A stretch of 64,000 bases of DNA from Verrucomicrobiota bacterium (GCA_043814705.1 JBDRJR010000122.1:9295-73294), one strand, 5' to 3'; positions 45,973 to 63,726 are shown, counted from the first letter of the stretch. Made by a program: numbers and translations. The notes: a model not told the origin generated them from the letters alone.

Positions 45973-46009
45973 TCCGGATGCGCGCGGGTAAAACAGGCCA
46001 TTACCGTAT

Positions 46010-47071
46010 ATGAACGCCGTCACATATCGAGAATTCTTTTTTTTAACATCATTCATTTTTTCGTTATTTTTTCTCACCGCTTGCAACGTGCGCCAACCGA
46101 TACCGAAACAATCATTCCTGGCAATGGGCACGCTGGGTTCCGTATCTTTATCGGCAAGCGAAGCGAATCGGATGGGAGAAGCAACCGCCATAGTAACAAA
46201 CGTCCTGAGCAATCTGGAAAAGCGTTGCAGTGTATATCGACTGGAAAGCGAACTCTCGCGTTTGAATGCCCAGGGCGCGAACCGGCCGCTTCCGGTTTCA
46301 CGGGAATTGCGCGAAATATTGGCTTTGGCCAAGGCCTACGGAGACCTAAGCGGCGGCGCGTTCGACGTCACCATCGGCCCGATTATGAAACTCTGGGGAT
46401 TCAACCAGAACCGGATACCGGCCAACCCGTTGACGCCCGATCAGATAAGGCCTTTTCTGGACAAGATCGGCTATCGGCACATCGTTCTTTCCAACGACAC
46501 CGTATGCCTGGATCAGGCCGACATCCAGGTGGATCTGGGCGGAATTGTCAAGGGCTATGCCGTTGACCGGTGTTGCGCGGAATTATTGAACCGCGGCCTT
46601 TCCAATGCCCTTGTGAATTTTGGCGGCAACATGCGCGCCCTGGGCGCGCCCGCCAAAGACCGGGCGTGGAAAATCGCGGTACGCAACCCATTCCGGCCCG
46701 ACCAATCACTCGGCACATTGTGCCTGTCGAACGGGCAGGCCGTGGCCACGTCCGGCAATTATGAGCGGTTCGTGACCTTGCACGGACGCCGCTATGGCCA
46801 TATTATGGATCCGCGCACCGGTTTTCCGGCAAGCGGCATGGCGGGCGTCACGGTCCTGGCGCAAACCGCCGCGGACGCCGACGCCCTTTCTACCATGCTT
46901 TTTGTGCAGGGCACACGGGAAGGGTTGGTTACGCTGAAAAAAAAACCGGGGTGCGCCGCGCTATTCGTGCCCGATCAACAACCTCTCGAAATCCTGATCA
47001 CACCAAGATTCGCCGGCTGGTTCAGTCCGAACCCGGACTTGGCGGACCGGGTAATACTGTTAAACGAATGA
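46010..47071 (+). CDS. apbE: FAD:protein FMN transferase ApbE (lipoprotein)
   Basis: Lipobox LTAC. LAMGT motif, GGIVKGYAVD, and a C-terminal Mg/FAD-binding region. It lies immediately upstream of rnf, whose D and G subunits it flavinylates. Confidence 0.85.
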   Translation: MNAVTYREFFFLTSFIFSLFFLTACNVRQPIPKQSFLAMGTLGSVSLSASEANRMGEATAIVTNVLSNLEKRCSVYRLESELSRLNAQGANRPLPVSRELREILALAKAYGDLSGGAFDVTIGPIMKLWGFNQNRIPANPLTPDQIRPFLDKIGYRHIVLSNDTVCLDQADIQVDLGGIVKGYAVDRCCAELLNRGLSNALVNFGGNMRALGAPAKDRAWKIAVRNPFRPDQSLGTLCLSNGQAVATSGNYERFVTLHGRRYGHIMDPRTGFPASGMAGVTVLAQTAADADALSTMLFVQGTREGLVTLKKKPGCAALFVPDQQPLEILITPRFAGWFSPNPDLADRVILLNE

Positions 47072-47149
47072 AAGTCGCGCTCCAATGCGCGTTTTTTTAT
47101 TTTGATTTCCGGCAAGTTTTGTAATACAAATGAATCACACGGAACTAAC

Positions 47150-47746
47150 ATGGAAAAATACATTCTGCTGATTCTCGGCGCGGTGCTGGTCAATAATTTT
47201 GTGCTGACCCGCTTCCTGGGAATCTGCCCGTTTTTGGGGGTTTCCAGAAATTTGCCGACGGCACTGGGCATGTGCGCCGCGCTTACTTTTGTGATGACCT
47301 GCGCCTCGGCGGTGGTTTGGTTGATATCGCGATGCTTGCTGGAACCATCCGGCGCGTTCCACGCTGACCTGACCTACCTGCAGACCATCGTGTTCATTCT
47401 GGTTATTGCGGCCTTTGTGCAGTTTGTGGAAATGATTATCCGGAAATTCAGCCCGATGCTTTACAAGGGCCTGGGGATTTATCTGCCGCTGATTACGACC
47501 AATTGCGCCGTGCTGGGCGTGGCCGTGCTGAATGTGCAAAAGGGCTTTAACCTGTTGGCCGCCACACTGTTCGGGTTTGGCGCCGCCGCCGGCTTTTCGC
47601 TGGCGCTTATTATTTTCACAGGCTTGCGCGAAAAAATCGATCGCGCCAACCCGCCGCAAGCGTTCCGCGGCACCGCCATCGCGCTCCTGACGGCCGGCCA
47701 GTTGAGCCTGGCCTTCATGGGTTTCGCGGCGTTGATCAAAATGTGA
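47150..47746 (+). CDS. rnfA: Rnf complex subunit A
   Basis: [30 protein letters not shown] is a classic RnfA/NqrE N-terminus. Confidence 0.9.
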
Positions 47747-48091
47747 TTAAAGACGTTCATGGTTTTCCGTTCGTTATTTTTCGCTTTGAACAAACCATTG
47801 GATTAGGCCCGGCGGTTGCCGGGCAACTTTGACAAAACGATCAGCCACAAAAACGCACAAGATTCACAAACATGATAAATCAATGCGCTTTTTCGTGCTT
47901 TTTGTGTCCGGCACCTGCCGGATGGCAACTTTAAAATTCCTTGGCATCGAAGTTAGGCGGCAAGGCCGCCGCTAATCGCACCCGGAAGTCGCGATCCACC
48001 TTAAGAAATCGTTGCCCGAGGTGGACGCCGCCGTCCCGGCGGCGTTTCCGTGCCATCGGCGACTAATTTGACAACCAGGAACATTGAGCGC

Positions 48092-48907
48092 ATGTCTGCG
48101 GATATTATAAATTCAACCATCATTACGGGCGGGATCGGGCTGTTTTGCAGTGTCCTGCTGGGCGTAGCCGCGCGTTTTTTCGCCGTGCACGAGGACCAGC
48201 GCATTGAGGCGCTTACCGCCCTCCTGCCCGGCGCCAACTGCGGCGCCTGTGGTTTTCCCGGGTGCGCCGAATATGCCCGCGCGCTCATCGGCGCGCACGC
48301 CAAAGTCAACCTTTGCAAACCAGGCGGAGCAACAACCATGCACGCGCTGGCATCCTGTCTGGGAATTGAGCCGGTGGTCACGGAACGGCAGGTGGCCATT
48401 GTGCTCTGCAACGGGGATGATCAAACAGCCGCACGCAAATTTCGCTATAATGGCATCGCCGATTGCGCCGCCGCGGCGCTCGTGGGCGGAGGCGACAAGG
48501 CCTGCAGTTACGGATGCCTGGGGCTGGGAAGCTGTGCGCGCGTTTGCCCGACCGACGCCATCGAAATTACGCCTGCACACCTGGCCGTTGTGCATCCGGA
48601 ACTGTGCATCGGCTGTGGACAGTGCCTGAAAGCCTGTCCTAAAAAGATCATCCGGCTCGTGCCCGAAAGCCGGACGATTCACATCCTGTGCCGGTCGAAG
48701 GACCGCGGGAACGTGGTAAAAAAGAACTGCTCCGTCGGTTGTATTGCCTGCACGCTCTGCACCAAGGTGGCGGGCAATGCCATCAGGATGGAAGGCGCCC
48801 TGGCCGTCGTGGATTACAGCCAGGAGTTGGAAAATGAAGCGGTCATCGCCAAGTGCCCGCAACACACAATCATCAAGCGTTCCGGCCGGAAGGCGGTCCC
48901 GGCATGA
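48092..48907 (+). CDS. rnfB: Rnf complex subunit B (polyferredoxin)
   Basis: N-terminal TM anchor, a GANCGACGFPGC cluster, and two further 4Fe-4S CxxCxxCxxxCP motifs. Confidence 0.85.
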   Translation: MSADIINSTIITGGIGLFCSVLLGVAARFFAVHEDQRIEALTALLPGANCGACGFPGCAEYARALIGAHAKVNLCKPGGATTMHALASCLGIEPVVTERQVAIVLCNGDDQTAARKFRYNGIADCAAAALVGGGDKACSYGCLGLGSCARVCPTDAIEITPAHLAVVHPELCIGCGQCLKACPKKIIRLVPESRTIHILCRSKDRGNVVKKNCSVGCIACTLCTKVAGNAIRMEGALAVVDYSQELENEAVIAKCPQHTIIKRSGRKAVPA

Positions 48908-50253
48908 AAATATTACGGGAACTGTTCCGTTCCAAAGGCGGCATCCATCCGGCGTCCCGCAAGCGGGCAACCGCCGCCATGCCTGTTGAAAACATGCCGT
49001 TATCGAAAGTTTTTTTCGTGTCCATGGTCCAGCACATGGGTGCACCGGCCCGGCCGATTGTAAAAAAAGGCGATGCCGTCATGCGCGGGCAGGTTCTGGG
49101 CGAAGCCGGGGGCTATGTTTCCGCGCCGGTCCACGCGCCAACCTCCGGCAAGGTCATCGCCCTCGGCGAACGCCCGACCCAGGCTGGCCTGCCGGCCGTA
49201 TGCGTGGAGATTGAGACTGACGGCGCAGACCGCTGGGACCCCGCAATCCAGCCTGGCCCCGACTGGAAAACCATGGAGCCCAAAGTCCTTGTGGAACGGA
49301 TCGTCACTGCGGGCATCGTCGGCATGGGCGGGGCCGGATTTCCCACCCACGTCAAACTTTTACCGCCGGCAGGTAAAACAATTGACACCTTGATCATTAA
49401 CGGCGCGGAATGCGAGCCTTACCTGACCGCCGACCTGCGGCTCATGGTGGAAATGCCGCAAAGCGTATGGACCGGAGCGCAGATCGTGCGACAGATTCTG
49501 GGCGCCCGCCGGATAGTGATGGCCATTGAGGACAATAAACCCGATGCCATTCAGGCCATGCGCGCCGTCATGCAAGCGACGGACGCCGAACTGGTCGTCC
49601 TGAAAACCAAATATCCGCAGGGAGCTGAAAAACAATTGATTTATGCCGTAACCGGCCGTGAGGTGCCATCCGGCGGCCTACCCATGGCCGTCGGTGCGCT
49701 CGTGGAAAACGTCGGCACCTGCGCCGCCATTTACGAGACAATCACGGCGGGACGCCCATTGACGGAACGTATTGTGACCGTCACAGGCGCCATGATCCGG
49801 ACACCTAAGAACTTGCGTGTGCGCATCGGCGCCCCACTGTCAGACCTGGCGGCTTTTTGCGGCGGGATGGCGGGCCAGCCGGGCAAAATTGTTTGTGGCG
49901 GTCCAATGATGGGCCTGGCCCAAGGTTCGCTGGAAACGGCGGTGACCAAAACAACCTCAGGCGTAGTGCTCTTGCCGCGCCAGGCGGTTCAGCAATTTTC
50001 ATCAATGCCATGCATAAGTTGCGGCCGTTGTGTTTCGGCCTGTCCAATGCGACTGATGCCGAACACGCTGGGCGAGATGATCGAGGCTGATGATATCGAG
50101 GGCGCCGAGGGCCTCGACGTAATGGATTGCATCGAATGCGGGGCCTGCGCCTACGAGTGCCCGGCGCACCGGCCGCTGGTTCAGCACATGCGCCGGGCCA
50201 AGGCGGAGATCGCAAAACAGCGCCGCGAAAAGGAAACGGCAAACAAGGGATAA
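48904..50253 (+). CDS. rnfC: Rnf complex subunit C (NADH-binding, 2x[4Fe-4S])
   Basis: GMGGAGFPT NADH/FMN region. CISCGRCVSACP and CIECGACAYECP motifs. Confidence 0.9.
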   Translation: MKILRELFRSKGGIHPASRKRATAAMPVENMPLSKVFFVSMVQHMGAPARPIVKKGDAVMRGQVLGEAGGYVSAPVHAPTSGKVIALGERPTQAGLPAVCVEIETDGADRWDPAIQPGPDWKTMEPKVLVERIVTAGIVGMGGAGFPTHVKLLPPAGKTIDTLIINGAECEPYLTADLRLMVEMPQSVWTGAQIVRQILGARRIVMAIEDNKPDAIQAMRAVMQATDAELVVLKTKYPQGAEKQLIYAVTGREVPSGGLPMAVGALVENVGTCAAIYETITAGRPLTERIVTVTGAMIRTPKNLRVRIGAPLSDLAAFCGGMAGQPGKIVCGGPMMGLAQGSLETAVTKTTSGVVLLPRQAVQQFSSMPCISCGRCVSACPMRLMPNTLGEMIEADDIEGAEGLDVMDCIECGACAYECPAHRPLVQHMRRAKAEIAKQRREKETANKG

Positions 50254-50360
50254 GATTGCCGTGAATTGCGAAAACACCGTTCTCTGCAAATGGCTAAAGA
50301 GTTGCCATCCCCGCGACAAGCGGGAATCCGGATTGAAAAAAACTTTGGTTTGGGAGTTTT

Positions 50361-51434
50361 GTGAAGTTATTTAAGGGACGCTACCGCAATATGAATGCAC
50401 CTGTTGAAAATACTCCGCCATTGGCGGCCGAAGAACCCGCCTGGCTGGTGAGTAGTTCGCCGCACGCGCATTCGGGCGATTCGGTACGCAAGATCATGCT
50501 TGCGGTGATTATCGCGCTCATGCCGGCCCTGGCGGCGGCCATCGGCTTGTTCGGCTGGGATACTCTCCGTCTGACGGGCATTTGCGTTGTCAGTTGTGTG
50601 GCGGCGGAATTTACGACGCGCAAGCTCATGCGCCGCAACAAGGGGATTGATGACTTAAGCGCCGTGGTCACCGGCCTTTTACTGGCATTCAACCTGCCGC
50701 CGGCGCTCCCGGGCTGGATGGCAATCGTCGGTTCCGTGGTGGCAATTGTCATTGCCAAGCAATTTTACGGCGGGCTGGGTTATAACCCCTTCAATCCGGC
50801 CCTGATCGGACGTGTATTCCTGTTAATTTCGTTCCCCGTGGCCATGACAACCTGGAGTCCGTGGCACATCATATCGCCGGCGGCCGGCGTGGATGCAATC
50901 ACCACGGCCACACCATTGGGATTGGTCAAGACGATGCTCGGCACAGGTCAACCCCTGCCTTTTGCATTCGACGGCGCCACGATCCTTCAATTTTTTATGG
51001 GGAATAAAAACGGGTGTATCGGCGAAGTATCCGGCCTGGCGCTCCTGGTAGGCGGGATGTATCTCCTGTGGCGGCGCTGTATTTCCTGGCAAGTCCCGGT
51101 GTTTTACATCGGCACAGTGGCGGTTTTTGCCGCGATCCTCTGGCTGGTGGATTCAGCTCATAATTATAATCCCCTTTTCCATATTCTGACCGGCGGACTG
51201 ATCCTGGGCGCATTTTTTATGGCCACGGATATGGTAACCACACCGGTTACGAAAGCCGGCCTGGCGTTTTTCGGCATCGGCTGCGGCATACTGACCATGG
51301 TCATCCGCAAGTGGGGCGGATACCCGGAAGGGGTCAGCTTTGCAATCCTGATCATGAACGCCTTCACCCCGCTGTTGAACCGCATGACCCGGCCACGGGT
51401 CTTCGGACACGGCAAAGCAAAGAAAACCCAATGA
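50361..51434 (+). CDS. rnfD: Rnf complex subunit D
   Basis: NqrB/RnfD family with the flavinylation site region (TGATP..). The true start is possibly ~50391. Confidence 0.9.
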   Translation: MKLFKGRYRNMNAPVENTPPLAAEEPAWLVSSSPHAHSGDSVRKIMLAVIIALMPALAAAIGLFGWDTLRLTGICVVSCVAAEFTTRKLMRRNKGIDDLSAVVTGLLLAFNLPPALPGWMAIVGSVVAIVIAKQFYGGLGYNPFNPALIGRVFLLISFPVAMTTWSPWHIISPAAGVDAITTATPLGLVKTMLGTGQPLPFAFDGATILQFFMGNKNGCIGEVSGLALLVGGMYLLWRRCISWQVPVFYIGTVAVFAAILWLVDSAHNYNPLFHILTGGLILGAFFMATDMVTTPVTKAGLAFFGIGCGILTMVIRKWGGYPEGVSFAILIMNAFTPLLNRMTRPRVFGHGKAKKTQ

Positions 51435-52012
51435 AAGACATAATTAAAATGGTAGTAGTGCTGACGGCCATCAGCGTGGTGGCCGGATATCTATTGGCAA
51501 CGACCAATAAAATCACCAAGGCGCCGATCGCGGCCGCGCGCCTGGCAGAAAAAATGGATGCCATGAAAAAAGTCCTGCCGGACTACGATAATAATCCGGC
51601 GGTAAACACCTGCGTCGTGCAGGAAGCCGGCAAACAATGGACGTTTTACGTGGCGCGCAGGCAGGGTGTCTTCGCCGGCGCCGCCTTCGAGGCCGCCTCA
51701 GATCAGGGCTACAGCGGCACGATCCGCATCCTGGCCGGGATCCTTCCGGATAATAGCATCAAGGGCTTGGAGATCATTGAACAGACCGAAACGCCGGGTT
51801 TGGGCGCAAAAATTTCGGAAAGCGCCTTCAAGGACCAGTTTCAAGGCAAAGCGATTTCCCACACACGCTGGATGGTGAAAAAAGACGGCGGTGATATTGA
51901 CGCCATCACCGGCGCCACGATTTCACCACGGGCCGTTATTTCCGCCCTGACAACAGGGCTGGCGGTATATACAAATCATTTTGACAGGATCGCGGCCACG
52001 GACGGCAGATAG
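51431..52012 (+). CDS. rnfG: Rnf complex subunit G (FMN-binding)
   Basis: N-terminal TM anchor and the FMN attachment motif (ITGATIS). The start overlaps the rnfD stop (ATGA). Confidence 0.85.
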   Translation: MKDIIKMVVVLTAISVVAGYLLATTNKITKAPIAAARLAEKMDAMKKVLPDYDNNPAVNTCVVQEAGKQWTFYVARRQGVFAGAAFEAASDQGYSGTIRILAGILPDNSIKGLEIIEQTETPGLGAKISESAFKDQFQGKAISHTRWMVKKDGGDIDAITGATISPRAVISALTTGLAVYTNHFDRIAATDGR

Positions 52013-52113: not shown

Positions 52114-52782
52114 ATGCGGTGTTACAAGGAATTGATTAAGGGACTGTGGACGGAAAACCCCATTTTCAGGATTGTGCTGGGCATGTGCCCTACCCTGGCG
52201 ATTACGACCTCGGTCAATAATGCCGTCGGCATGGGATTGGCCGCCACGTTTGTGCTGGTCTGTTCCAATACCGCCGTTGCGGCCGTGCGCAATATCGTGC
52301 CGGGCAAAGTCCGGATTCCGTGTTACATCGTGATTATTGCCACCTTTGTCACGATTGTGGACCTGTTGATGAATGCGTTTGCGCACGAATTGCACAAAGC
52401 CTTGGGTATCTTTATTCCACTGATCGTGGTGAACTGCATCATCCTGGGCAGGGCTGAAGCGTTTGCCAGCAAGAACGGCGTCTGGCTGTCGCTTGCTGAC
52501 GGCATTGGCATGGGCATAGGCTTCACGCTGGCGCTGATTGTGGTTTCCGCCGTCCGGGAAATTCTGGGAAACGCCACCCTGCTGGGTTATGCCGTCGGCC
52601 ATTACCAGTCCGTCCTGCTGATGGTTCTGCCACCGGGTGGATTCCTGACGTTGGGCTGTCTGCTGGCGCTGATGAATCACATCCAAGCTTGCATGGCTTT
52701 GCATAGCGGACGCACATACGCCCCATCCCCTGCTCTCGACTGCCGCCACTGCATGATCTGCAAATGGGATGAGGAAAAATAA
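52114..52782 (+). CDS. rnfE: Rnf complex subunit E
   Basis: LWTENPIFRIVLGMCPTLAITTSV is the RnfE/NqrD signature. Confidence 0.9.
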   Translation: MRCYKELIKGLWTENPIFRIVLGMCPTLAITTSVNNAVGMGLAATFVLVCSNTAVAAVRNIVPGKVRIPCYIVIIATFVTIVDLLMNAFAHELHKALGIFIPLIVVNCIILGRAEAFASKNGVWLSLADGIGMGIGFTLALIVVSAVREILGNATLLGYAVGHYQSVLLMVLPPGGFLTLGCLLALMNHIQACMALHSGRTYAPSPALDCRHCMICKWDEEK

Positions 52783-52791
52783 AAATATTTC

Positions 52792-54234
52792 GTGAAATTC
52801 GAATTAATACTTGCATTCGCCGTTTTGACGCCACTGCTTGGCTCGTTTTCCCTGCCCCTGATTGGCCGCTGGTCGGAACAAACACGTAATGGATTAGCGC
52901 TGATTTTTGTGCTGGTGGCGCTCGGCATGGCGGTCATGCTGGTTCCGTTCGTTACCGCCGGACTGACTGTCTCCGTGCAATTGGCCGGATTTACGCTCTT
53001 TTACGCCGACAGCCTGGCCGTGTTCATGGCCATCGTTTCATCCCTGGTAGGCGCCGTCATTGTCCTGTATTCCTTCGGTTACATCCGCCACTATCCCTGG
53101 CGGAATGAATACTATTTCATGGTGGTCCTCTTCCTGGGCGCCATGATGGGGCTGATTTTCGCGCGAAACCTGCTCGTCCTTTACCTGTTCTGGGAAATTA
53201 CGTCCATTGCCTGTTGGCGGCTAATCGGCTTTTTCCGGGAAAAAAGCTATGTGCTCAAAGCCGACAAGGCCTTTCTCGTCACCGTATTCGGCGCCCTGGT
53301 AATGCTCATGGGGTTTATTATAATTTACAGTCAAACGGGCTCTTTCGATCTGGGCCGGATCCAAACGGCCCTTCAAGGCCGGCCGATCTCTAATATCGCG
53401 GTATTGCTGATCCTGTTCGGCATTTTGTCAAAGTCCGCCACGGTGCCTCTGCATACCTGGCTTCCGGATGCCGGTGTAGCGCCCGCGCCGGTCACGGCGC
53501 TCCTGCATGCCGCCGTGCTGGTAAAAATCGGCGTTTATGTATATGCCCGGTTGTTTCTCGCCGGCATGGCGATCGAACCAATCTGGCACACGGTGGTTCC
53601 GGCCATTGCGGCGGTCAGCGCGCTTGTTGCGGCCGGCGCGGCCCTGGTCGAAACCAACTTGAAACGTCTGATCGCCTATTCCACGATCAGCCAGATCGGA
53701 TTCATCTTCCTGGGACTTTCCATCGGCAACGAAATCGGCATTGCCGGCGGTTTGCTTTATATCCTCATGCACGGGATTGCCAAGGCCGGCCTGTTCCTGT
53801 GCGCCGGCATCGTCGAACAAAACGCTAAAACCAAGGACATTACCCAGATGGGCGGATTGATCACCACGATGCCCGTGACCGCCGTTGCTTTCCTGCTTTG
53901 CGCATTTTCGGTAATGGGCATTCCGCCGACGGGCGGTTTCTTCAGCAAGTATATGGTCATTACCGGCGCGGTAACCAGCGGGCAGATAGTCATTACCCTG
54001 ACATTCATTGTCGGCGCGTTCCTGACGATCATTTACCTGTTCCGCGCGTTCACGCTCGTGTTTCTGGGCGAATCAAAGCTTGCGGCGGGATTCCGGCCGG
54101 CGGAAGGTTCGCCGGTAATGGTCTTCAGCGTTGCCTTCCTGGGCGCACTGGCAATCCTCAGCGGATTATTCATTAATTTTCCGTCGCAATTTGTTCAAAC
54201 CGCCGTGCACCAGATGCTGGGGCTAATTCAATAA
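52792..54234 (+). CDS. Antiporter-like subunit 1 of the membrane-bound hydrogenase (NuoN/MrpD-type proton-conducting membrane transporter)
   Basis: ~14 TM helices and the conserved TWLPDA motif of the complex I/Mrp antiporter family. Confidence 0.8.
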   Translation: MKFELILAFAVLTPLLGSFSLPLIGRWSEQTRNGLALIFVLVALGMAVMLVPFVTAGLTVSVQLAGFTLFYADSLAVFMAIVSSLVGAVIVLYSFGYIRHYPWRNEYYFMVVLFLGAMMGLIFARNLLVLYLFWEITSIACWRLIGFFREKSYVLKADKAFLVTVFGALVMLMGFIIIYSQTGSFDLGRIQTALQGRPISNIAVLLILFGILSKSATVPLHTWLPDAGVAPAPVTALLHAAVLVKIGVYVYARLFLAGMAIEPIWHTVVPAIAAVSALVAAGAALVETNLKRLIAYSTISQIGFIFLGLSIGNEIGIAGGLLYILMHGIAKAGLFLCAGIVEQNAKTKDITQMGGLITTMPVTAVAFLLCAFSVMGIPPTGGFFSKYMVITGAVTSGQIVITLTFIVGAFLTIIYLFRAFTLVFLGESKLAAGFRPAEGSPVMVFSVAFLGALAILSGLFINFPSQFVQTAVHQMLGLIQ

Positions 54235-54377
54235 CGCGACCTGAATGACCGCAACTGTTTCATTTGGCCGTCCCGATGCGCTTGCACGATCAGAATGACA
54301 CCGTGGCCGCCGAAGGAATCCACGCCCTCACGGGCGCGGCTACCAAAATTTACATTCTGATATAAGTAGCCAATAGT

Positions 54378-56234: not shown

Positions 56235-56236
56235 AC

Positions 56237-57694
56237 ATGCCCATGTTGCTCATTATCGTCCCATTGCTGGCTGTCCTGGCGTTGAACCTGCCGTGGATGC
56301 GCCTGATGAACCGGCTGGCTATCTGGGTCGGCCTGGGATTGTGTCTGGCCCAGGCCGGCCTGGTAATTTTTAACCCGGCTTTTTTCCACAACATACCGTC
56401 GCTGTGGCTCGGCCGCCTGCTCCTGTTCGAGTCCACGGTGGATCATCTCGCGCTGGTCATGTTCCTGGCCATTGCCATCGTGGGCGCCGGGGCGTTGATG
56501 GTCTGCCGCCATGCGGTTTTCGCGACGGCTGAGTCTGCTTTATCAGGGGTGTGCGTCAACAACCGTTTTCTGGTCATTAATCTCGTGATCTTGGCACTGA
56601 CCGGCATGAACGGCGTGGTGCTCGCCAATGATCTGTTCTCGTTATACGTTTTTCTGGAAATCACGGCCGTAGCTTCCTATATCCTGATCGCAGTTGAAAA
56701 AGGGCGCGATGCCTTCGAGGGCGCATTCAAGTATCTGATCATGTCCGCCGTGGCCACCGCCCTGATCCTGGCGGCCATTGCCCTGTTGATGCTGACCGCC
56801 GGCAGTCTGTCTTTCGCACATATCAAACCGGCAATGGACGCCTCACCCCATGGCCGCGTTGTCTTGGCGGCTATAGCCCTGCTGGCGGCCGGACTGTTCA
56901 TCAAGGGCGGCCTGATTCCGTTTCACGGCTGGCTGCCGGACACCTACTCGGCGGCGCCCGCGCCGGTATCCATCCTGCTGGCGGGTATTGTTACCAAGAC
57001 CACGGGCGTGTACACGCTGATCCGGGTGGTAATATCTGTCATCGGGTTCAACGCCTCGCTCCAGACCCTGTTTTTGTTGATCGGTGTTGTTTCGATGCTG
57101 GTTGGAGTGCTGGCGGCCCTCGGTCAGAGTGATTTCAAACGCATGCTGGCTTACTCCAGCATCAGCCAGGTCGGTTATATCGTGCTGGGTTTGGGCGCCG
57201 GGACAAATCTCGGTATTGCCGGCGCCATATTGCACTTGTTCAACCATGCCATTTTCAAGTCGCTCCTGTTTATTAACGCGGCCGCGGTGGAACAGCAAAC
57301 CGGCACTCGCAACATGAACCGGCTGGGCGGCTTAGCCGAAAAAATGCCGGTAACCGGCTTTACCGCGATAATTGGATTCCTGTCCACGGCGGGTATTCCA
57401 CCCCTGGCGGGATTCTGGAGCAAGCTGATCATCATCGTGGCGCTTTGGCAGACCGGCCATATCGTTTATGCCGTTGCCGCCATCCTGGCCAGTCTGTTAA
57501 CCTTGGCATATTTGCTCTCCATGCAACGACGCGTATTTTTCGGGAAACTGGCCGCGGGTTATGAAAACCTCAGGGAAGCAAACGCCTGGATATTGATTCC
57601 GGCCTGCGTCCTGGCGCTGATTACAATCGGCGTAGGCATCGGCATCCCATGGCTGTTTGAAACGTTCCTGCTTCCCATCCGCAGTTTGTTATAA
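56237..57694 (+). CDS. Antiporter-like subunit 3 (NuoM/MrpD-type)
   Basis: HGWLPDTY motif. The start at MPMLLIIV lies 2 nt after the preceding stop. Confidence 0.8.
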   Translation: MPMLLIIVPLLAVLALNLPWMRLMNRLAIWVGLGLCLAQAGLVIFNPAFFHNIPSLWLGRLLLFESTVDHLALVMFLAIAIVGAGALMVCRHAVFATAESALSGVCVNNRFLVINLVILALTGMNGVVLANDLFSLYVFLEITAVASYILIAVEKGRDAFEGAFKYLIMSAVATALILAAIALLMLTAGSLSFAHIKPAMDASPHGRVVLAAIALLAAGLFIKGGLIPFHGWLPDTYSAAPAPVSILLAGIVTKTTGVYTLIRVVISVIGFNASLQTLFLLIGVVSMLVGVLAALGQSDFKRMLAYSSISQVGYIVLGLGAGTNLGIAGAILHLFNHAIFKSLLFINAAAVEQQTGTRNMNRLGGLAEKMPVTGFTAIIGFLSTAGIPPLAGFWSKLIIIVALWQTGHIVYAVAAILASLLTLAYLLSMQRRVFFGKLAAGYENLREANAWILIPACVLALITIGVGIGIPWLFETFLLPIRSLL

Positions 57695-57757
57695 TATTTC
57701 AAATTATTACGCCACAGGCGGAGCGGCCGGAGACATGAAGCTTTTTGGAAAAACCGT

Positions 57758-58282
57758 ATGATTAATCCCGTCTTTTTCATCGTGTTGCTGTTCCTCCTCC
57801 TGCTGATGGGGATCGCAACGGTTATGACGCTTGATCTGCTGAAGTCGGCCATAGGACTGGCCGTGACCAGCGCAATCCTGTCGTTTCTGTTGTTCCGCAT
57901 GGACGCGCCCCTGGCCGGCGTTTTCGAGCTTTCCGTCTGTGCCGGCCTGATTATTGTCGTATTCATTAATGTCATCAGTTTGACCAAGCCGCTGACGGAC
58001 GCCGCCGCGCGCGCGCGCGACCGTAGCCGGGTCAGGCGCTTCATTTGCCTGCCGATCCTGATCGTCATTCTGGGCGGGATCTTGTATATTCTGCGCCCGC
58101 AGATGGATCTGCCCTTGCCGCCGTCCAGCGTCGTAACGGATGCGCGCGAGATGCTTTGGAATGTCAGGCGGATGGATCTCGTCGGCCAGATTCTAATTAT
58201 CCTGGCCGGTGTGTTTGGCGTCGTGATCCTGTTCAAGGAACGGCCCGATATCAAGGGACCGCGGGGGGAGGGTAATTCATGA
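57758..58282 (+). CDS. MnhB/MrpB-like small membrane subunit
   Basis: 174 aa with 4-5 TM helices and MrpB-domain-like organisation. Its stop overlaps the next start (ATGA). Confidence 0.6.
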   Translation: MINPVFFIVLLFLLLLMGIATVMTLDLLKSAIGLAVTSAILSFLLFRMDAPLAGVFELSVCAGLIIVVFINVISLTKPLTDAAARARDRSRVRRFICLPILIVILGGILYILRPQMDLPLPPSSVVTDAREMLWNVRRMDLVGQILIILAGVFGVVILFKERPDIKGPRGEGNS

Positions 58283-58599
58283 TAGCCCATGCGCAAACGC
58301 TGTTCGCCGCAGGTGTAATTTTCATAATACTGCTGGCGGTCACGGCGCTTTATTGCATCCTTATCAGCCGCAACCTGATCCGCATGCTGATCGGCCTGGA
58401 ACTGCTGGTCAAGGCCGTCACACTGCTGATCGCTCTGGCCGGTTATCTCGGCGGCCACATGGCGCTGGCGCAGACCATGATCATTACGATGATCGTGATC
58501 GAGGTCGTGGTCATCGCCGTGGCGGCCGGCATTGTCATCGGCGCCCACCGCCACAACCATTCGCTGGATGTCAGGACACTGAGGAACCTGAGGGGATAG
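58279..58599 (+). CDS. NuoK/MrpC-like 3-TM subunit
   Basis: 106 aa, three TM helices, and a LIGLELL-type motif (MLIGLELLVKAVTLL). Confidence 0.7.
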   Translation: MIAHAQTLFAAGVIFIILLAVTALYCILISRNLIRMLIGLELLVKAVTLLIALAGYLGGHMALAQTMIITMIVIEVVVIAVAAGIVIGAHRHNHSLDVRTLRNLRG

Positions 58600-58604
58600 A
58601 GCAA

Positions 58605-58698
58605 GAAATTTGTAATTCGAAATTTGGAAGAGAGACAAAACATGGCTATGCATTCAAAACGCGCGAAGACGAATATCTAATTTCCAATTTCTAATTTC
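58605..58698. repeat. MITE-like element, copy 3 (GAAATTN inverted arms) inserted between two hydrogenase membrane-subunit genes
   Basis: Left arm gaaatttgtaattcgaaatttgg, right arm ctaatttccaatttctaatttc. It fills the whole 113-nt spacer between the 58599 stop and the 58713 start. Confidence 0.65.
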
Positions 58699-58712
58699 AA
58701 AGGATTCGATCT

Positions 58713-59048
58713 ATGGATAACTGGCTGTTATGGACGCCGTTCACATTTTTGCTGATTCTCTTCACGACGCTGATTTTGTTGAGGGGCTTGGCTTTGTTTT
58801 CATCAACTTCCAGGGGCGCCGTCCCGGGGGGCAAGCTCAAACCCTATGCCTGCGGCGAGGATATGCGGGAAAACCGGGGCCAGCCGGATTACAGCCAGTT
58901 TTTCCCGTTCGCGGTTTTTTTCACCATCATGCACGTGCTCGCGCTCGTGGTGACGACCGTTCCCGTGCACGATTGGCCGGCCGTTGAAATCGCCATGGGA
59001 TATTGGATTTGTTCCTCCATCGGATTGTTCATTCTGTTCCGGAGATAG
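58713..59048 (+). CDS. NuoA-like small membrane subunit
   Basis: KLKPYACGE matches the NuoA/ND3 KxxPYECG motif, followed by a hydrophobic FxxFxxVA-like helix. Confidence 0.55.
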   Translation: MDNWLLWTPFTFLLILFTTLILLRGLALFSSTSRGAVPGGKLKPYACGEDMRENRGQPDYSQFFPFAVFFTIMHVLALVVTTVPVHDWPAVEIAMGYWICSSIGLFILFRR

Positions 59049-59114
59049 GTTTTCTGGAAGAAATGGTTAATGGCTAATGGTTGATGGTCAATGTTATTCA
59101 GGAGACAGGCATCC

Positions 59115-59558
59115 ATGAAATGGTTGCGGAAATTGACTGCCTGGGCCCGGATCAAATCGCCGTGGATCATTCATTTCAACACGGGCGCCTGCAATGGCTG
59201 TGACATTGAAATTGTGGCGGCGCTGACGCCGCGCTATGATATCGAACACCTCGGCATTCTGTTAAAGGGCACACCCCGGCACGCGGATATCCTGCTGTGC
59301 TCCGGACCCGTGACGCGCCAGATCCAGGACCGGCTGGTGCGCATCTACGAACAAATGCCGGAGCCCAAGTTCGTCGTCGCCGTGGGAGCCTGCGCCTGCT
59401 CGGGCGGCGTATTCAAAGGCTGTTATAATGTGTGCGGCGGCATTGATGCCGTGATTCCGGTCGCGGTCTACATCCCCGGATGCCCGGTACAGCCCGAGGC
59501 GATTATTGACGGGATCGTCAAACTGCTGGCTGGCCTGAAGGACGGGAAATCATCATGA
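59115..59558 (+). CDS. [NiFe] hydrogenase small subunit, NuoB-like (single proximal 4Fe-4S)
   Basis: GACNGCDIE, GACACSGG and CPGCP cysteine motifs. Confidence 0.85.
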   Translation: MKWLRKLTAWARIKSPWIIHFNTGACNGCDIEIVAALTPRYDIEHLGILLKGTPRHADILLCSGPVTRQIQDRLVRIYEQMPEPKFVVAVGACACSGGVFKGCYNVCGGIDAVIPVAVYIPGCPVQPEAIIDGIVKLLAGLKDGKSS

Positions 59559-60016
59559 CGAACGAGGAAAAAATCCGGCAGGAACTGTCGGAACAGTTCG
59601 GCTTCGGCACGGAACAGATCCGCGTGACGCGCGAACGGCGCCTATTCCTGGAAACGCCCTATAACCGGTTCCGCGGCGTGCTTGAACACGCCGTGAACAA
59701 CATGGGCTTCAAGCAACTGTGCACGATTACCGGATTGGATGAAGGCGAATCACTGGCGGGCATCTATCACCTGGCGCGTGCGGATGGCATCGTGCTGAAC
59801 CTGAGGGTGCGCGTCCCGAAAGCCAATCCGGTTTTGCAAACGATCACCGACATATTTCCCGGCAGTATGAATTATGAGCGCGAGCTGGTGGATTTGCTGG
59901 GTTTCAGGGTGGAAGGGTTGCCGGAAGGCAACCGCTATCCCCTGCCCGACAACTGGCCGATCGGTCAATGCCCGTTGCGCAAGGACTGGAAAGCGAAAAT
60001 GCCGGACACAACCTGA
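59555..60016 (+). CDS. NuoC-like (30 kDa-type) hydrogenase subunit
   Basis: YERELVDLLGFRVEG matches the NuoC/HycE-N ERExxDxxG motif. Confidence 0.8.
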   Translation: MTNEEKIRQELSEQFGFGTEQIRVTRERRLFLETPYNRFRGVLEHAVNNMGFKQLCTITGLDEGESLAGIYHLARADGIVLNLRVRVPKANPVLQTITDIFPGSMNYERELVDLLGFRVEGLPEGNRYPLPDNWPIGQCPLRKDWKAKMPDTT

Positions 60017-60074
60017 ATTTGAAATCCGGTGTTTCGAATTTCGTGCTTCAATTTTAGATTAAAAAGGGACGGCC

Positions 60075-61298
60075 ATGGCTAATGTCAAGATTCCCGTCGG
60101 TCCACAGCACCCGGCCTTGAAAGAGCCGGAAAATTTTACCATTACGCTCAACGGTGAAAACATCATCAACATGGATATGCGCCTGGGCTACAATCACCGC
60201 GGCATCGAAAAAGCCTGCGAGGAACGCACTTACCTCCAGGCCATGTATATTGTCGAGCGCGTCTGCGGGATATGTTCCCACTCGCATTCAACCTGCTTCA
60301 TCCAGGCCGTGGAGGAAATCGCCGGGCTGAGCGTGCCGCCGCGCGCCCAATTCATACGCACGATCATCGCCGAGCTGGAACGCATGCACAGCCACTTGCT
60401 CTGGCTGGGCGTGGCCGCCCATGAAATCGGTTTTGATACCCTGCTGATGTATTCGTGGCGCGATCGTGAACTGGTTATGGATGCCCTGGCCACATTGACC
60501 GGCAACCGTGTCAACTACGGCATGAACACGATCGGCGGCGTGCGCCGGGACATCAGCCAAGAACATTTGACCGGCCTCCTGAAAACGATGGATGTGCTCG
60601 AAGAACGCACGAAATATTACATTGAAGTCGTATCGCAAGAGCTTACATTGATCAAAAGGCTCTCCGGCGTGGGTTATCTTTCACACGCGGATGCCGTAAA
60701 ACTTGGCACAATCGGCCCCACCGGACGCGCTTCCGGTGTTGACACCGACACCCGCCGGGATGATCCGTATCTCGCCTACCGGGAACTTGATTTCAAGGTA
60801 ATCACCGATAATCATAACGACGTTTACGGGCGCACACTGGTGCGTGTCGGCGAATTAATGCAATCCTATAGTATGATCCGCCAGCTGGCCGCCAAAATGC
60901 CGGCAGGCCCCATCGCAATCAAGGCGCCTCGTAAAATTCAGGCCGGTGAAGCCTTCAGCCGTTATGAGGCGCCGCGGGGCGAGGACGTTCATTACGTCAA
61001 GGCCAACGGCACCGACAAGCCCGAACGGGTGAAAATCCGGGCGCCCACGCTGGCCAACCTTGCCGCGGTATCCAAAATGATGGAAAACAACCGCTTGGCG
61101 GACGTGCCGATCATTATCGCGGCCATTGACCCGTGTTTTTCATGCACGGACCGGATGATCCGGGTCAACGACACTGGCGGCAACCAGCGCGAAATCATTT
61201 CCTGGCAGTCGTTGCATGCGCAAAGCGTGGAGTGGTATCGGAAACAGGGCATTGATTTTAAGGCGTTGAATGCGAAACTAAACCTGCCGCGACTGTAA
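60075..61298 (+). CDS. Group 4 [NiFe] hydrogenase large subunit (NuoD-like) with a ~40-aa C-terminal extension
   Basis: N-terminal RVCGICSHSH and C-terminal DPCFSCTDR Ni-Fe ligand motifs are both intact. Confidence 0.88.
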   Translation: MANVKIPVGPQHPALKEPENFTITLNGENIINMDMRLGYNHRGIEKACEERTYLQAMYIVERVCGICSHSHSTCFIQAVEEIAGLSVPPRAQFIRTIIAELERMHSHLLWLGVAAHEIGFDTLLMYSWRDRELVMDALATLTGNRVNYGMNTIGGVRRDISQEHLTGLLKTMDVLEERTKYYIEVVSQELTLIKRLSGVGYLSHADAVKLGTIGPTGRASGVDTDTRRDDPYLAYRELDFKVITDNHNDVYGRTLVRVGELMQSYSMIRQLAAKMPAGPIAIKAPRKIQAGEAFSRYEAPRGEDVHYVKANGTDKPERVKIRAPTLANLAAVSKMMENNRLADVPIIIAAIDPCFSCTDRMIRVNDTGGNQREIISWQSLHAQSVEWYRKQGIDFKALNAKLNLPRL

Positions 61299-61303
61299 TT
61301 ACC

Positions 61304-62245
61304 ATGATTTTAACATTGTTCCATTTGCTGATATTCCCGGGCTTTCTGTTCCTGTGCTTTTTCGGGTGGGCCATGGAATATGTGGACCGCAAGCTTTACG
61401 CCCGATTGCAGAACCGGATCGGCCCGCCCTGGTTTCAGCCGCTGGCCGACTTCATCAAGCTGGCCGCCAAGGAAGACATTATCCCCGAGGAAGCTGATCC
61501 GGTCATATTCAAATTAATGCCGGCCTTTGCCCTGACAGCAGTGGTTACGGCCTTTTTTTACATTCCCCTTTGGGGGACGCAGGCGCTGTTTGCATTCAGC
61601 AGTGACTTGGTCGTCGTAATTTACCTGCTTACAATCCCCACGATGACGTTTTTCCTGGCCGGGTGGCATTCCGAATCCCTGTTTCCGATGATCGGCGCGA
61701 CCCGCACCCTGACCCAGCTTTTTGCCTATGAAGTGCCTTTATTTATGGCCATCCTGGCACCGGCCCTGCTGGCCAACACATGGTCCCTCAACGAGATGAC
61801 GGTGTTTTATCATCGGCATCCGGCCTATACCGGATACAACCTTATCGGCTTTATCGTGGCGCTCATCGCGCTCCAGGGCAAGCTGGAACGGGTGCCGTTC
61901 GATATTCCCGAAGCCGAAACCGAGATTGTCGGGGGCACGTTCACGGAATACGGCGGGCGGTTTTTGGCTTTGTTCCGTCTGGCTATTGATATTGAAGCTG
62001 TCGTCGGGGCCTCCTTGATCGCCGCCGTTTTTCTGCCGTTCGGGCTGGGGCTGGGCGCGGGATGGGGATTTGTTTTTTACATTGTCAAGGTGCTCATTAT
62101 CATTTCCCTGCTGACGCTTGTGCGAACAGTCCTGGCGCGGCTGAGAATCGAGCAAATGGTGATCTTCTGCTGGAAAGTCGTGGCGCCGGCCGCTTTGCTC
62201 CAGCTTTTTATCAACCTGATCCTCAGTGGAGCTATCCGATTATGA
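61304..62245 (+). CDS. NuoH-like membrane subunit (HycD/EchB/MbhM-type)
   Basis: 8-TM NuoH-family topology with a conserved acidic loop. Confidence 0.8.
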   Translation: MILTLFHLLIFPGFLFLCFFGWAMEYVDRKLYARLQNRIGPPWFQPLADFIKLAAKEDIIPEEADPVIFKLMPAFALTAVVTAFFYIPLWGTQALFAFSSDLVVVIYLLTIPTMTFFLAGWHSESLFPMIGATRTLTQLFAYEVPLFMAILAPALLANTWSLNEMTVFYHRHPAYTGYNLIGFIVALIALQGKLERVPFDIPEAETEIVGGTFTEYGGRFLALFRLAIDIEAVVGASLIAAVFLPFGLGLGAGWGFVFYIVKVLIIISLLTLVRTVLARLRIEQMVIFCWKVVAPAALLQLFINLILSGAIRL

Positions 62246-62667
62246 TCAAACCGGGAAAAATGGCCCGCGAAGTTCTGCAATCCCTTTTCCGCCCGCCAGC
62301 CACCGTGCTTTACCCGTCCGTTAAGGTCCCAAGGCCCGACCGGTTCCGCGGCAAAATCAAGTTCACGTCCGCCCGATGCATCGGATGCAAATTATGCATG
62401 CAGGATTGTCCGACAAACGCGATAACAATTACCAGGGTTGGCGACAAGCAGTTCCAGGCCGAATTTGATCTCGATAAGTGCATTTATTGCGCCCAGTGCG
62501 TTGATTCCTGTCCCAAAAAAGCACTGGAGTCCACCACCGAATACGAACTGGCCCAGCTCCAACGCGACAAACTGAAAGTGATTTTCCATGCCGAGCCCAC
62601 GCCTCCATCCGCCCCGGCGGCGCCCGCTGAGCGCACTGCTGAAAGCCCGTCTGCAACCGGCGCATAG
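62242..62667 (+). CDS. NuoI-like 2x[4Fe-4S] ferredoxin subunit
   Basis: CIGCKLCMQDCP and CIYCAQCVDSCP. The start at MIKPGK overlaps the previous stop. A Pro/Ala-rich tail follows. Confidence 0.8.
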   Translation: MIKPGKMAREVLQSLFRPPATVLYPSVKVPRPDRFRGKIKFTSARCIGCKLCMQDCPTNAITITRVGDKQFQAEFDLDKCIYCAQCVDSCPKKALESTTEYELAQLQRDKLKVIFHAEPTPPSAPAAPAERTAESPSATGA

Positions 62668-63226
62668 TCTGGCCGTCGTCGGGATCGGGTCCGATCTGCG
62701 CGGCGACGATATTGCCGGCCTCCTGGTTCTGCGCAATTTGCGCGCGGCATTGGCCCGCCCGCAACGCTGGAGCCCTGCCCGCAATGCTACGCATAGCGTT
62801 GCAGGCGGGGTAGCGACTGCGGGCGCGGCGCGCTCCCGGCCAAAAACCATCCGCTCTGAGGCATCGGAACGAGTCCGGCTGTTTGATGGCGGCACAGCGC
62901 CCGAAAACCTGACGGGTGAAATCGTGCGGTTCCGGCCTTCGCATATTTTACTGGTGGACGCCGCCGACTTTGGACAAAAACCGGGCACGGTGAAATTAAT
63001 TGAGCCTGAGAATATAGACGGCATGTCGTTTTCCACGCACGCCCTGCCGCTGAATATCCTGGCCGACTATCTAAAGCGCACCCTGTCCTGCCACATCATG
63101 ATCCTGGGCATCCAGCCCGGGCGAACCGATTTCGGCGCGCCGCCTTCCCGCGAAATTCGACAAACCGCCCGCCGGCTCGCACGGATCATTTTAAATGCCG
63201 CGCTACGCCGTGAAAAAAGCGCTTGA
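62588..63226 (+). CDS. Hydrogenase maturation endopeptidase (HycI-type) carrying a ~50-aa low-complexity insert
   Basis: LAVVGIGSDLRGDDIAG metal-binding N-terminus and a downstream H ligand region. The start (ATG 62588 or later) is uncertain. Confidence 0.65.
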   Translation: MPSPRLHPPRRRPLSALLKARLQPAHSLAVVGIGSDLRGDDIAGLLVLRNLRAALARPQRWSPARNATHSVAGGVATAGAARSRPKTIRSEASERVRLFDGGTAPENLTGEIVRFRPSHILLVDAADFGQKPGTVKLIEPENIDGMSFSTHALPLNILADYLKRTLSCHIMILGIQPGRTDFGAPPSREIRQTARRLARIILNAALRREKSA

Positions 63227-63264
63227 TCAGGCGTCATGATTCCCGCGGCAAAACCGTCACTGCG

Positions 63265-63726
63265 CTAAAGGGCTCTTAATTCCCGCATGATTACATCGAG
63301 ATACTCCGGCAGGCGCGCTTGTAAAACCGGCGACAGTGTTTCGCCCGGCGCCAGCGTCTCGGGCTGGATGCCGAAGATAACGATCCGCTCCGGGTACTCG
63401 CCCACACGCCGCGCCAGGGCAATCAGGTCCAACACATTGCCTTCGTGAAGGGAAAAATACGGGGGCGCATCACCGGCGCGCACCGTGTCCGGGGTAAAAC
63501 GGCGCAAGGTGCCCGGCGCCGCGCCCATGCGGGCGCAATCCAGGATCACGGCCGTTTTCCGGCCGGCAAAAGCATGGAGCACGGCCATGCCGCCCGTGCC
63601 CAATTCCAGAAAATCCACGGTCGGAAATTCGGCTGATTTCCGCGTCAATGTATCCAGTAGGACCAAGCCGATATTCTCGTCCGAAAGAAGCCTGTTGCCC
63701 AACCCGATGACCACCGTGGGGTTCAT
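63265..63726 (-). CDS. Hydrogenase maturation endopeptidase (HyaD/HybD-type)
   Basis: MNPTVVIGLGNRLLSDENIG and downstream Asp/His ligands. It is on the opposite strand at the window edge. Confidence 0.75.
   Translation of the reverse strand: MNPTVVIGLGNRLLSDENIGLVLLDTLTRKSAEFPTVDFLELGTGGMAVLHAFAGRKTAVILDCARMGAAPGTLRRFTPDTVRAGDAPPYFSLHEGNVLDLIALARRVGEYPERIVIFGIQPETLAPGETLSPVLQARLPEYLDVIMRELRAL

Follow-up and report, generated by a model that had tools for sequence, protein, structure and literature searches.

In the genome of a Verrucomicrobiota bacterium, the genes of an Rnf complex are followed, head to tail, by those of a group 4 [NiFe] hydrogenase. The two sets lie in a stretch of 64,000 nucleotides (GCA_043814705.1, JBDRJR010000122.1:9295-73294), here called the window. 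Rnf links the passage of electrons from reduced ferredoxin to NAD+ with the export of Na+ or H+, and group 4 hydrogenases link electron flow from reduced ferredoxin to protons with ion export; both reactions are reversible. The locus is a lineage-specific join of these two standard ferredoxin-dependent, ion-translocating complexes, which are probably expressed from one transcript and share a pool of ferredoxin. As all components come from known families and the new feature is a variant gene order seen in a single genome, the locus is of use for annotation and offers a modest lead rather than a discovery.

Genes of the cluster were called as open reading frames (ORFs), and their families were assigned with Pfam and NCBIfam profiles. 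Nineteen genes follow one another on the plus strand between 46,010 and 63,226: apbE, the six rnf genes, eleven hydrogenase genes (52792-62667) and a gene for a maturation protease. ORF calls, Pfam and NCBIfam agree with the first-pass annotation of this DNA on the positions of apbE, rnfABCDGE and the eleven hydrogenase genes. The gap of 9 nucleotides that it reported between rnfE and the first hydrogenase gene is exact. The stop codon of rnfE lies at 52780-52782. The junction that follows (52783-52791, plus strand, AAATATTTC) bounds the hydrogenase cassette on the left, and GTG at 52792 is the start codon of the first hydrogenase gene. Its orthologue in relatives is an ATG start (VKFELIL here, MKFECIL in locus L084). 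The join does exist in the assembly, where the NCBI protein accessions follow one another from MFH1477612 (RnfE) through MFH1477621 (large subunit) and belong to a single 93-kb contig. The cluster had further been described as lying on one strand and as including two maturation proteases. The single strand extends to 63226, and the first protease, HycI (62588-63226), belongs to the cluster; the second (63265-63726) is of the HyaD/HybD type, convergent on the minus strand and outside it.

Conservation of the join in related genomes had been named beforehand as a test of the idea that Rnf and the hydrogenase form a coupled unit, and the join is not conserved. Eighty genome loci with the cassette were obtained by scanning one genome per species, and their gene content was determined by tblastn with the window proteins; in 56 of the 80, the sequence extends 2 kb or more beyond the start of the first gene on its upstream side. 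A match to rnf or apbE (E <= 1e-8) was found near none of the 80. In none of the seven closest relatives with upstream sequence (83-92% amino-acid identity) do rnf genes precede the hydrogenase; the upstream genes there encode either a peptidase or an ABC transporter (the latter in L084). From the other side, the hydrogenase cassette follows rnfE in none of about 14 closely related rnf loci. Eight rnf loci, among them L100, L101, L102 and L106-L109, have nfnAB-like genes after rnfE, and L103-L105 and L111 have a convergent protease, of which a remnant is left in L111; different genes come next in the remainder. Thus the join of rnfE and the hydrogenase has been seen in this one genome only and is absent from more than 100 related loci. 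Because the adjacency is not conserved in related loci, it is a lineage-specific rearrangement in one Kiritimatiellia-like metagenome-assembled genome (MAG), not a new conserved system.

The nfnAB-like genes of the related loci are of the NfnAB/SudAB kind (PRK06222, 415 bits; TIGR01316, 609 bits) and stand directly after rnfABCDGE in L100 (6944-9415), L106 (10757-13110) and L107-L109. In L100, a V-type ATPase operon lies a few kilobases beyond them.

One other association of Rnf with the hydrogenase was found, and it is independent of the first. On a 2.7-kb metagenome contig (L093), an rnfC-like gene (5-772, minus strand) is arranged head to head with the first hydrogenase gene (1697-2761), about 900 nucleotides away. 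The hydrogenase gene is 79% identical and of the same hydrogenase family. The rnfC-like gene is 45% identical, with a typical RnfC N-terminus, and belongs to a distinct type in which rnfC comes first. Judged roughly, two adjacencies among about 70 informative loci exceed random placement, yet they are far from a conserved module.

A related arrangement has been described in Margulisbacteria RA1A, where Ech, a V-ATPase and Rnf occupy one genomic region that the authors flagged as remarkable (Matheus Carnevali et al. 2019, PMC6349859). That region shares with the window a group 4 energy-converting hydrogenase and Rnf in close proximity. It differs in having a six-subunit Ech of group 4e, the gene order rnfCDGEAB and a V-ATPase, and neither a 9-nucleotide head-to-tail join nor the loss of a promoter is reported for it (PMC6349859).

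The way in which the locus arose can be approached through two kinds of related locus, each with an empty site in blastn alignments. In the first (L085, L086 and L087), the relatives are collinear with the window from comEC to a D-Ala-D-Ala carboxypeptidase gene of family Peptidase_S11, up to about 45972-45985, and resume at about 52781-52799. In the second (L103, L104, L105 and L111), they are collinear through M48 peptidase, S11, apbE and rnfABCDGE to 52779 and resume at 63267. The rnf genes of L111 are the most similar to those of the window (87-90% DNA identity). The S11 gene (44746-45972, plus strand; PF00768, E=1.3e-57), which forms the left flank, is an anchor common to both kinds of locus, as seen in blastn synteny with L081, L085, L086 and L087 and with L103 and L104. 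Its linkage to apbE and rnf is kept in L103-L105.

At the join itself, homology to rnf loci stops at 52779 and homology to hydrogenase loci starts at 52781. The window consists of a backbone, S11-apbE-rnf-hycI2, in which hycI2 is the minus-strand protease gene, and of a 10.48-kb cassette (52783-63264) lodged exactly between the stop codons of rnfE and hycI2. Insertion of a promoter-less cassette behind rnfE would be the most parsimonious origin of this arrangement. Neither direct repeats nor microhomology were seen at the cassette ends. A version in which apbE-rnf had been inserted before the hydrogenase was revised, since L103 and L111 show that S11-apbE-rnf-hycI2 is itself the conserved backbone.

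The 3' end of rnfE has also changed elsewhere. In L111 (4846-5658) and in P0247, the rnfE stop codon is lost and the protein is extended by 40-46 residues over the remnant of a convergent protease gene. The loss of the stop in two relatives indicates that the 3' junction of rnfE is unstable in this clade.

Evidence for co-transcription can be provided by the signals that the cassette has lost and those that the rnf genes have kept. Six relatives (L081 at 2043-2120, L084, L086, L087 and the more distant L089 and L001) have a promoter-like element, TTGCATTGATTTTTTWAAT-N-TAAAGT, 60-90 nucleotides upstream of the first hydrogenase gene. No match to it exists anywhere in the window at up to 3 mismatches, and just 9 nucleotides are left between the rnfE stop and the orthologous start codon of the hydrogenase. 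The hydrogenase genes of the window are 83-87% identical to those of L084, L086 and L087 and 72-81% identical to those of L089 and L001. Since they appear nested among relatives that have the element, its loss appears to be derived. A consensus scan of the plus strand between 52013 and 52791 found no promoter-like or terminator-like site.

Upstream of rnfA, at 47076-47125 on the plus strand, a short hairpin (CGCGC-N6-GCGCG) with a T-run, scored as a terminator-like match, is followed by a promoter-like element. It is conserved, with columns that do not vary, when the window is aligned with three rnf loci of two configurations, L103, L100 and L106. Because the cassette is without its own promoter-like element and the rnfA upstream element is retained, read-through co-transcription is likely, and the Rnf and hydrogenase genes probably form one long operon. 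The apbE gene may be a separate transcription unit, because the hairpin, T-run and conserved rnf element lie between it and rnfA.

The proposed function can be outlined as follows. A single transcript of about 16 kb, from about 47.1 to 63.2 kb (rnfA to hycI), would express Rnf and the hydrogenase together. Both would draw on one ferredoxin pool, and both would move ions across the membrane. Rnf would interconvert reduced ferredoxin plus NAD+ with oxidized ferredoxin plus NADH. In the hydrogenase, electrons from ferredoxin would reach the [NiFe] site by way of two Fe-S subunits, one NuoI-like and one NuoB-like, and there form H2, or take the reverse path, coupled to three antiporter-like channels. 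Co-expression would allow a sugar fermenter to direct the electrons of ferredoxin either to NAD+ or to protons, with energy conserved at each step. At low H2, Rnf could run in reverse and the electrons of NADH could leave as H2; either direction would be possible. A role in balancing NADH, ferredoxin and H2 through shared ferredoxin is plausible, and the suggestion of the first-pass annotation that the two pumps could work in opposite directions is a reasonable hypothesis. The general scheme is not new. Rnf and an energy-converting hydrogenase sharing a ferredoxin pool are already standard in papers on MAGs (PMC6349859, PMC8542988), and for MAGs of Omnitrophota and their relatives Rnf has already been drawn alongside hydrogenases of the 4g/Mbh type (PMC8542988).

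Ferredoxin is taken as the redox partner of the hydrogenase because no other input module recurs beside the cassette: the flanks of the 80 loci contain no conserved electron-input partner of the formate dehydrogenase, CO dehydrogenase or NuoEFG type.

Several points weigh against a co-transcribed pair of complexes with a common ferredoxin pool. The assignment of ferredoxin is inferred from the absence of another input module. Three conserved proton channels seem to provide more coupling than the energy span from ferredoxin to protons could pay for. A promoter inside rnfG or rnfE may be compatible with the consensus scan. The join is present in a single MAG, hence selection for it is not demonstrable. 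The order of events rests on parsimony, and both insertion of the cassette and differential loss are possible. Finally, S11 also borders the hydrogenase in the other kind of locus, a coincidence that the insertion model leaves unexplained.

The strongest competing explanation, which has a modest chance of being right, is that the cassette came to lie beside rnf by chance in a region prone to rearrangement, is expressed from a cryptic internal promoter and has no special functional link to Rnf. The adjacency is not conserved in any of the more than 100 related loci, and relatives of about 77-90% DNA identity show at least four locus configurations, which marks the region as recombinationally active. 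The hydrogenase operon is also found behind an ABC transporter, as in L084. A neutral juxtaposition does not, however, readily account for a cassette placed to the nucleotide between two stop codons and lacking its native promoter element, and no sigma-70-like match is present in the last 1.2 kb or so upstream. The second, independent adjacency in L093 also speaks against chance, as does the fact that Rnf repeatedly adjoins redox-balancing modules in this clade. Rnf has been found beside nfnAB, a group 3b hydrogenase and a group 4 hydrogenase, and this fits a habit of the clade of clustering modules that balance ferredoxin, NAD(P)H and H2.

A bolder interpretation would make Rnf the dedicated NADH-input module of a complex-I-type hydrogenase that has no N module of its own. 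The two would be obligately co-expressed, perhaps physically associated, and would form an ion-coupled loop from NADH to protons or from H2 to NAD+. One complex would build an ion gradient for the other to spend, and the pair would be a functional analogue of the 14-subunit complex I, with protons replacing quinone. This interpretation is improbable.

The cassette could also be a recent and silent acquisition, a promoter-less operon that is unexpressed and heading for decay. Its missing native promoter element and the GTG start of its first gene, where relatives have ATG, would fit such a fate. Against this, none of its 12 genes is damaged: the ligands of the [NiFe] site and of the Fe-S clusters are in place, as are the conserved channel residues, and no ORF has been disrupted in spite of a DNA divergence of about 13-25% from every sampled relative. 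This explanation is very unlikely.

A join of this kind could in principle be produced by assembly or binning, if an rnf locus and a hydrogenase locus of related populations that occur together had been merged into a chimera. The MAG comes from short reads, metagenomes hold related populations with each parental arrangement, and the exact proteins are found on a single contig only. For such a chimera to form, two misjoins would have to fall within a few bases of gene ends (52780 and about 63265) and leave every ORF and start codon intact, and both outer flanks come from one syntenic backbone; on these two grounds an assembly chimera has only a slender chance. Nor do the cassette and the rnf block match any sampled relative identically (best 83-90%), so they were not stitched from the populations sampled.

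Least probable of all is a physical supercomplex, assembled by co-translation, in which the RnfB polyferredoxin would pass electrons directly to the NuoI-like subunit without soluble ferredoxin: the 9-nucleotide spacing and the long, multi-cluster RnfB are circumstantial points in its favour, but the hydrogenase occurs without adjacent Rnf in all other genomes sampled, and no additional domain and no adaptor gene peculiar to this genome was seen in either partner.

Provided that the join is genuine and its genes are transcribed together, as seems probable, it is a natural experiment in which a promoter-less hydrogenase shaped like complex I has come under the control of an Rnf operon. It would argue that the cell wants both ferredoxin-linked ion pumps made together. 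The locus is also a concrete place to test the venting of NADH electrons as H2 through reverse Rnf, a route often drawn for uncultured anaerobes and rarely tested. The hydrogenase cassette deserves attention in its own right, as a strictly syntenic set of 12 genes with three intact predicted proton channels in MAGs labelled as more than 10 phyla. To our knowledge, it has never been studied biochemically.

The eleven hydrogenase genes, all on the plus strand, begin with three antiporter-like subunits. The first (52792-54234) resembles NuoL/M/N, MrpA/D and HyfD (PF00361, 259 bits). The second (54378-56234) is a full-length NuoL-like protein, residues 10-615 of which match positions 9-610 of the 615 in model NF005141; it has a C-terminal extension of about 130 amino acids with a final transmembrane helix. 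The third (56237-57694) is NuoM/N-like (PF00361, 240 bits). The glutamate of transmembrane helix 5 (TM5) and the lysines of TM7, TM8 and TM12 are kept in all three.

Small membrane subunits follow. A NuoJ-like, or MbhD-E-like, subunit (57758-58282) matches PF00499 at the cut-off (33.1 bits, E 5.4e-8); among solved structures it matches 6u8y_D (E=5.8e-5) and 6cfw_D (E=1.7e-3), and its N-terminal half resembles MbhD. The next is NuoK-like (58279-58599; PF00420, 59.8 bits). The third is called NuoA-like (58713-59048) from its conserved position in the operon and a weak sequence match, with PF00507 below the cut-off (E=6.5e-4) and ND3 (8b9z_A) at E=0.028; it is present in 70 of the 80 loci.

The remaining genes encode the catalytic part and its membrane anchor. 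The small subunit (59091-59558) is NuoB-like (PF01058, 111 bits), with cysteine ligands for one [4Fe-4S] cluster. A NuoC-like subunit (59555-60016; PF00329, 75.5 bits) is encoded separately, unfused to the large subunit. The [NiFe] large subunit (60075-61298; PF00346, PF00374) is NuoD-like and has an L1 motif RVCGICSHSH, an L2 motif DPCFSCTDR and a C-terminal extension of about 48 amino acids that is the predicted target of cleavage by HycI. Its four [NiFe] cysteines are invariant in 20 homologues. The motifs described for group 4 large subunits are C[GS][ILV]C[AGNS]xxH for L1 and [DE][PL]Cx[AGST]Cx[DE][RL] for L2 (PMC7886697). The membrane anchor (61304-62245) is NuoH/MbhM-like (PF00146, 249 bits; 6cfw_M, 127 bits; NuoH, 122 bits). 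Last comes a NuoI-like subunit with 2x[4Fe-4S] (62242-62667; Fer4, two CxxCxxCxxxCP motifs), the presumed entry point of electrons from ferredoxin.

All 12 ORFs of the cassette, including HycI, are full length, and their catalytic motifs are intact. The group 4 set is present, with a NuoB-like small subunit, a NuoH-like anchor, a NuoI-like 2x[4Fe-4S] subunit and three antiporter-like subunits. Since both [NiFe] motifs and all four cysteines are present, the enzyme is a true hydrogenase and not an Ehr protein or a quinone reductase.

On the evidence of its genes, the enzyme is best described as a group 4 [NiFe] hydrogenase with complex I architecture. The first-pass annotation had called it Mrp/Mbh-type. 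This description suits the catalytic core, which among solved structures is closest to MbhL and MbhM; it does not suit the membrane arm, which has three antiporter-like subunits and NuoJ/K/A-like subunits and lacks MrpE/F/G and MnhB. The best solved relative of the large subunit is MbhL (6cfw_L, 337 bits, E=9e-100), ahead of HycE (274 bits) and Nqo4 (215 bits). None of the 11 hydrogenase genes matches the families of MrpE/F/G and MnhB (PF01899, PF04066, PF03334, PF04039). The arm is thus complex-I-like rather than Mrp/Mbh-like, because it combines three NuoL/M/N-type subunits and J/K/A-like subunits with no Mrp module.

Several known systems can be compared with it. The membrane-bound hydrogenase of Pyrococcus furiosus (MBH, group 4d, PDB 6CFW), whose electron donor is ferredoxin, is the closest solved relative for the large subunit, the anchor and the J-like subunit's N-terminal half. 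In MBH, a single antiporter-like subunit (MbhH) is accompanied by an Mrp-type Na+ module (MbhA-C and F), whereas the enzyme here has three such subunits and no such module. Group 4d was therefore not adopted: likeness to MbhL is present, and the Mrp-derived Na+ module is absent. A genuine Mrp-Mbh-type operon, with MrpE/F/G, MnhB, MbhD/E and its own HycI, lies convergent to the cassette hydrogenase in L081 (14544-21227) and L084 (15573-21227).

The nearest described kind is Hfo of Bathyarchaeia, an Fpo-like [NiFe] hydrogenase of 11 subunits in HydDB subgroup 4g (Loh et al. 2021, PMC7886697). Hfo is presumed to be ferredoxin-coupled and ion-translocating and is without biochemical characterisation (PMC7886697). 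The two enzymes share eleven Nuo/Fpo subunit types (A, B, C, D, H, I, J, K, L, M and N), the absence of NuoEFG/FpoFO and the L1 and L2 motifs. Genes for 51K, 24K or 75K subunits are found neither in the cassette nor repeatedly in the flanks of the 80 loci. The gene order of Hfo is A-B-C-D-H-I-J-K-L-M-N, and that of the window is L-L/M-N-J-K-A-B-C-D-H-I. Unlike Hfo, the enzyme here is bacterial and widely distributed, and it has a dedicated HycI gene and a C-terminal extension of the large subunit. Similar enzymes of Omnitrophota have been called 4g (PMC8542988); the label 4g would apply here by analogy with such MAG papers, not by HydDB or placement in a tree.

Another comparison is offered by hydrogenase-4 of E. 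coli, or formate hydrogenlyase-2 (Hyf, group 4a). It too has three antiporter-like subunits (HyfB, D and F) and a large-subunit extension cleaved by HycI, and the NCBIfam matches of the antiporter-like subunits in the window include HyfD/HyfB. Hyf has a large subunit in which NuoC is fused to NuoD, and it works with formate dehydrogenase H and HyfA, whereas the NuoC-like and NuoD-like genes here are separate. No formate dehydrogenase, molybdopterin or HyfA-type gene occurs in the window cluster or among the recurrent neighbours of the 80 loci. Classification as Hyf was rejected on account of the unfused NuoC and NuoD and the missing FdhF/HyfA partner. Ehr was rejected because the four [NiFe] cysteines are present, and Ech because a defining feature of it is lacking.

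The cassette has been shown to be a self-contained, autonomous and conserved unit of 12 genes, an 11-subunit hydrogenase plus HycI. Homologues of the large subunit number in the thousands. The top 120 are 69-100% identical and carry labels such as Kiritimatiellia, Lentisphaerae, Omnitrophota and Endomicrobiales; among them, the match at 100% is an NCBI 'Verrucomicrobiota' MAG. Among the 80 loci, labelled Omnitrophota, Planctomycetota, Elusimicrobia, Spirochaetota, Bacillota, Myxococcota, Margulisiibacteriota and others, the order L-L-N-J-K-A-B-C-D-H-I-hycI is repeated wherever the length of the contig permits. Recurrent neighbours of the cassette are an H+-pyrophosphatase (H+-PPase, 11 loci), subunits of F-type ATP synthase and hyp maturation genes. 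The large subunit (P0028) is 60-86% identical, with strict 12-gene synteny, across MAGs labelled as more than 10 bacterial phyla, plus one labelled Bathyarchaeia (77%). Such a distribution suggests that the cassette has often moved horizontally as a whole, or that some of the MAGs are mis-binned.

The Rnf block is complete, with A, B, C, D, G and E in a single cluster in the order rnfABCDGE, all on the plus strand. It is preceded by apbE (46010-47071, plus strand; PF02424, 270 bits), which encodes an FAD:protein FMN transferase that is a predicted lipoprotein with the lipobox LTAC. The block begins with rnfA (47150-47746; TIGR01943, 259 bits against a cut-off of 229), whose best start is the ATG at 47150. 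The rnfB gene (48092-48907; PF04060 and Fer4; TIGR01944, 100 bits against 68.7) encodes the long poly-[4Fe-4S] form of the protein, with 22 cysteines. It is followed by rnfC (48904-50253), for the NADH- and FMN-binding subunit with RnfC_N, Complex1_51K, SLBB and Fer4 domains, and by rnfD (50391-51434; PF03116, NQR2_RnfD_RnfE, 399 bits), rnfG (51431-52012; PF04205, FMN_bind) and rnfE (52114-52782; TIGR01948, 263 bits against 213). The starts at 48092, 48904, 50391 and 51431 are likewise the best supported for rnfB, rnfC, rnfD and rnfG.

RnfG has the canonical flavinylation motif DAITGAT, and RnfD has a variant, DAITTAT, with T at the g position. With the pattern Dxx(s/t)gA(T/S) in both subunits and ApbE available, covalent attachment of FMN to RnfG and RnfD is predicted. 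The flavinylation of Rnf by ApbE that the first reading of this DNA had proposed is borne out to this extent by the RnfG motif and the lipoprotein signal of ApbE. Compared with Rnf of Rhodobacter capsulatus and Acetobacterium woodii and Rsx of E. coli, the complex has the same six subunits, the rnfABCDGE order, ApbE and a long poly-ferredoxin RnfB. Nothing essential differs; RnfD has DAITTAT where SGAT-type motifs are usual, and the structured spacer between rnfA and rnfB is 345 nucleotides long.

This unusually long spacer (47747-48091, plus strand) is rich in GC hairpins, with an RNA fold z-score of -3.3. In relatives it measures 26, 93 or 286 nucleotides and is of unrelated sequence. Rfam contains nothing that matches it, the window has no further copy of it, and an Rfam scan of the whole window gave zero matches. 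A repeated mobile element was considered and rejected, since the spacer is unique and its only match is one of 26 nucleotides at the rnfB-proximal end in L106. The site seems to gather small palindromic inserts.

The last gene of the cassette, for the HycI-type maturation protease (62588-63226, plus strand; TIGR00142, 118 bits), overlaps the NuoI-like gene by 80 nucleotides and follows the operon in 65 of the 80 loci. Compared with the HycI profile, the protein contains some 35 inserted residues, among which Ala, Gly and Arg are abundant.

The right flank is the HyaD/HybD-type endopeptidase gene hycI2 (63265-63726, minus strand; TIGR00140-type). Its product is 83.7% identical in amino acids to that of a gene located 10 nucleotides after rnfE in L103, and orthologues are present in L103-L105. 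There, the orthologue is the last gene of a four-subunit, sulfhydrogenase-like operon (group 3b). The gene was placed outside the cluster because it is of the HyaD/HybD type and convergent and because its orthologue ends a group 3b operon in relatives. In the remaining 274 bases to the end of the window, no ORF lies on its strand. That it might end a convergent Mrp-Mbh operon, in the manner of L081 and L084, was rejected, with about 28% identity in that case against 84% to the L103 protease. In L103 (10674-15982), and also in L104 and L105, the convergent group 3b [NiFe] hydrogenase operon lies 10 nucleotides past rnfE, so that Rnf adjoins a different class of hydrogenase.

Elsewhere in the window, three long ORFs are without a Pfam match at E <= 1e-5: one of 605 amino acids (11713-13530, minus strand) and two, of 439 and 520 amino acids, on opposite strands (33955-35637). 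A complete NAD-dependent 2-oxoacid dehydrogenase complex, with a fused E1, E2 and E3, is encoded at 13481-18749 on the minus strand and would be a source of NADH in what appears to be an anaerobe. A citrate synthase gene is located at 3963-5402.

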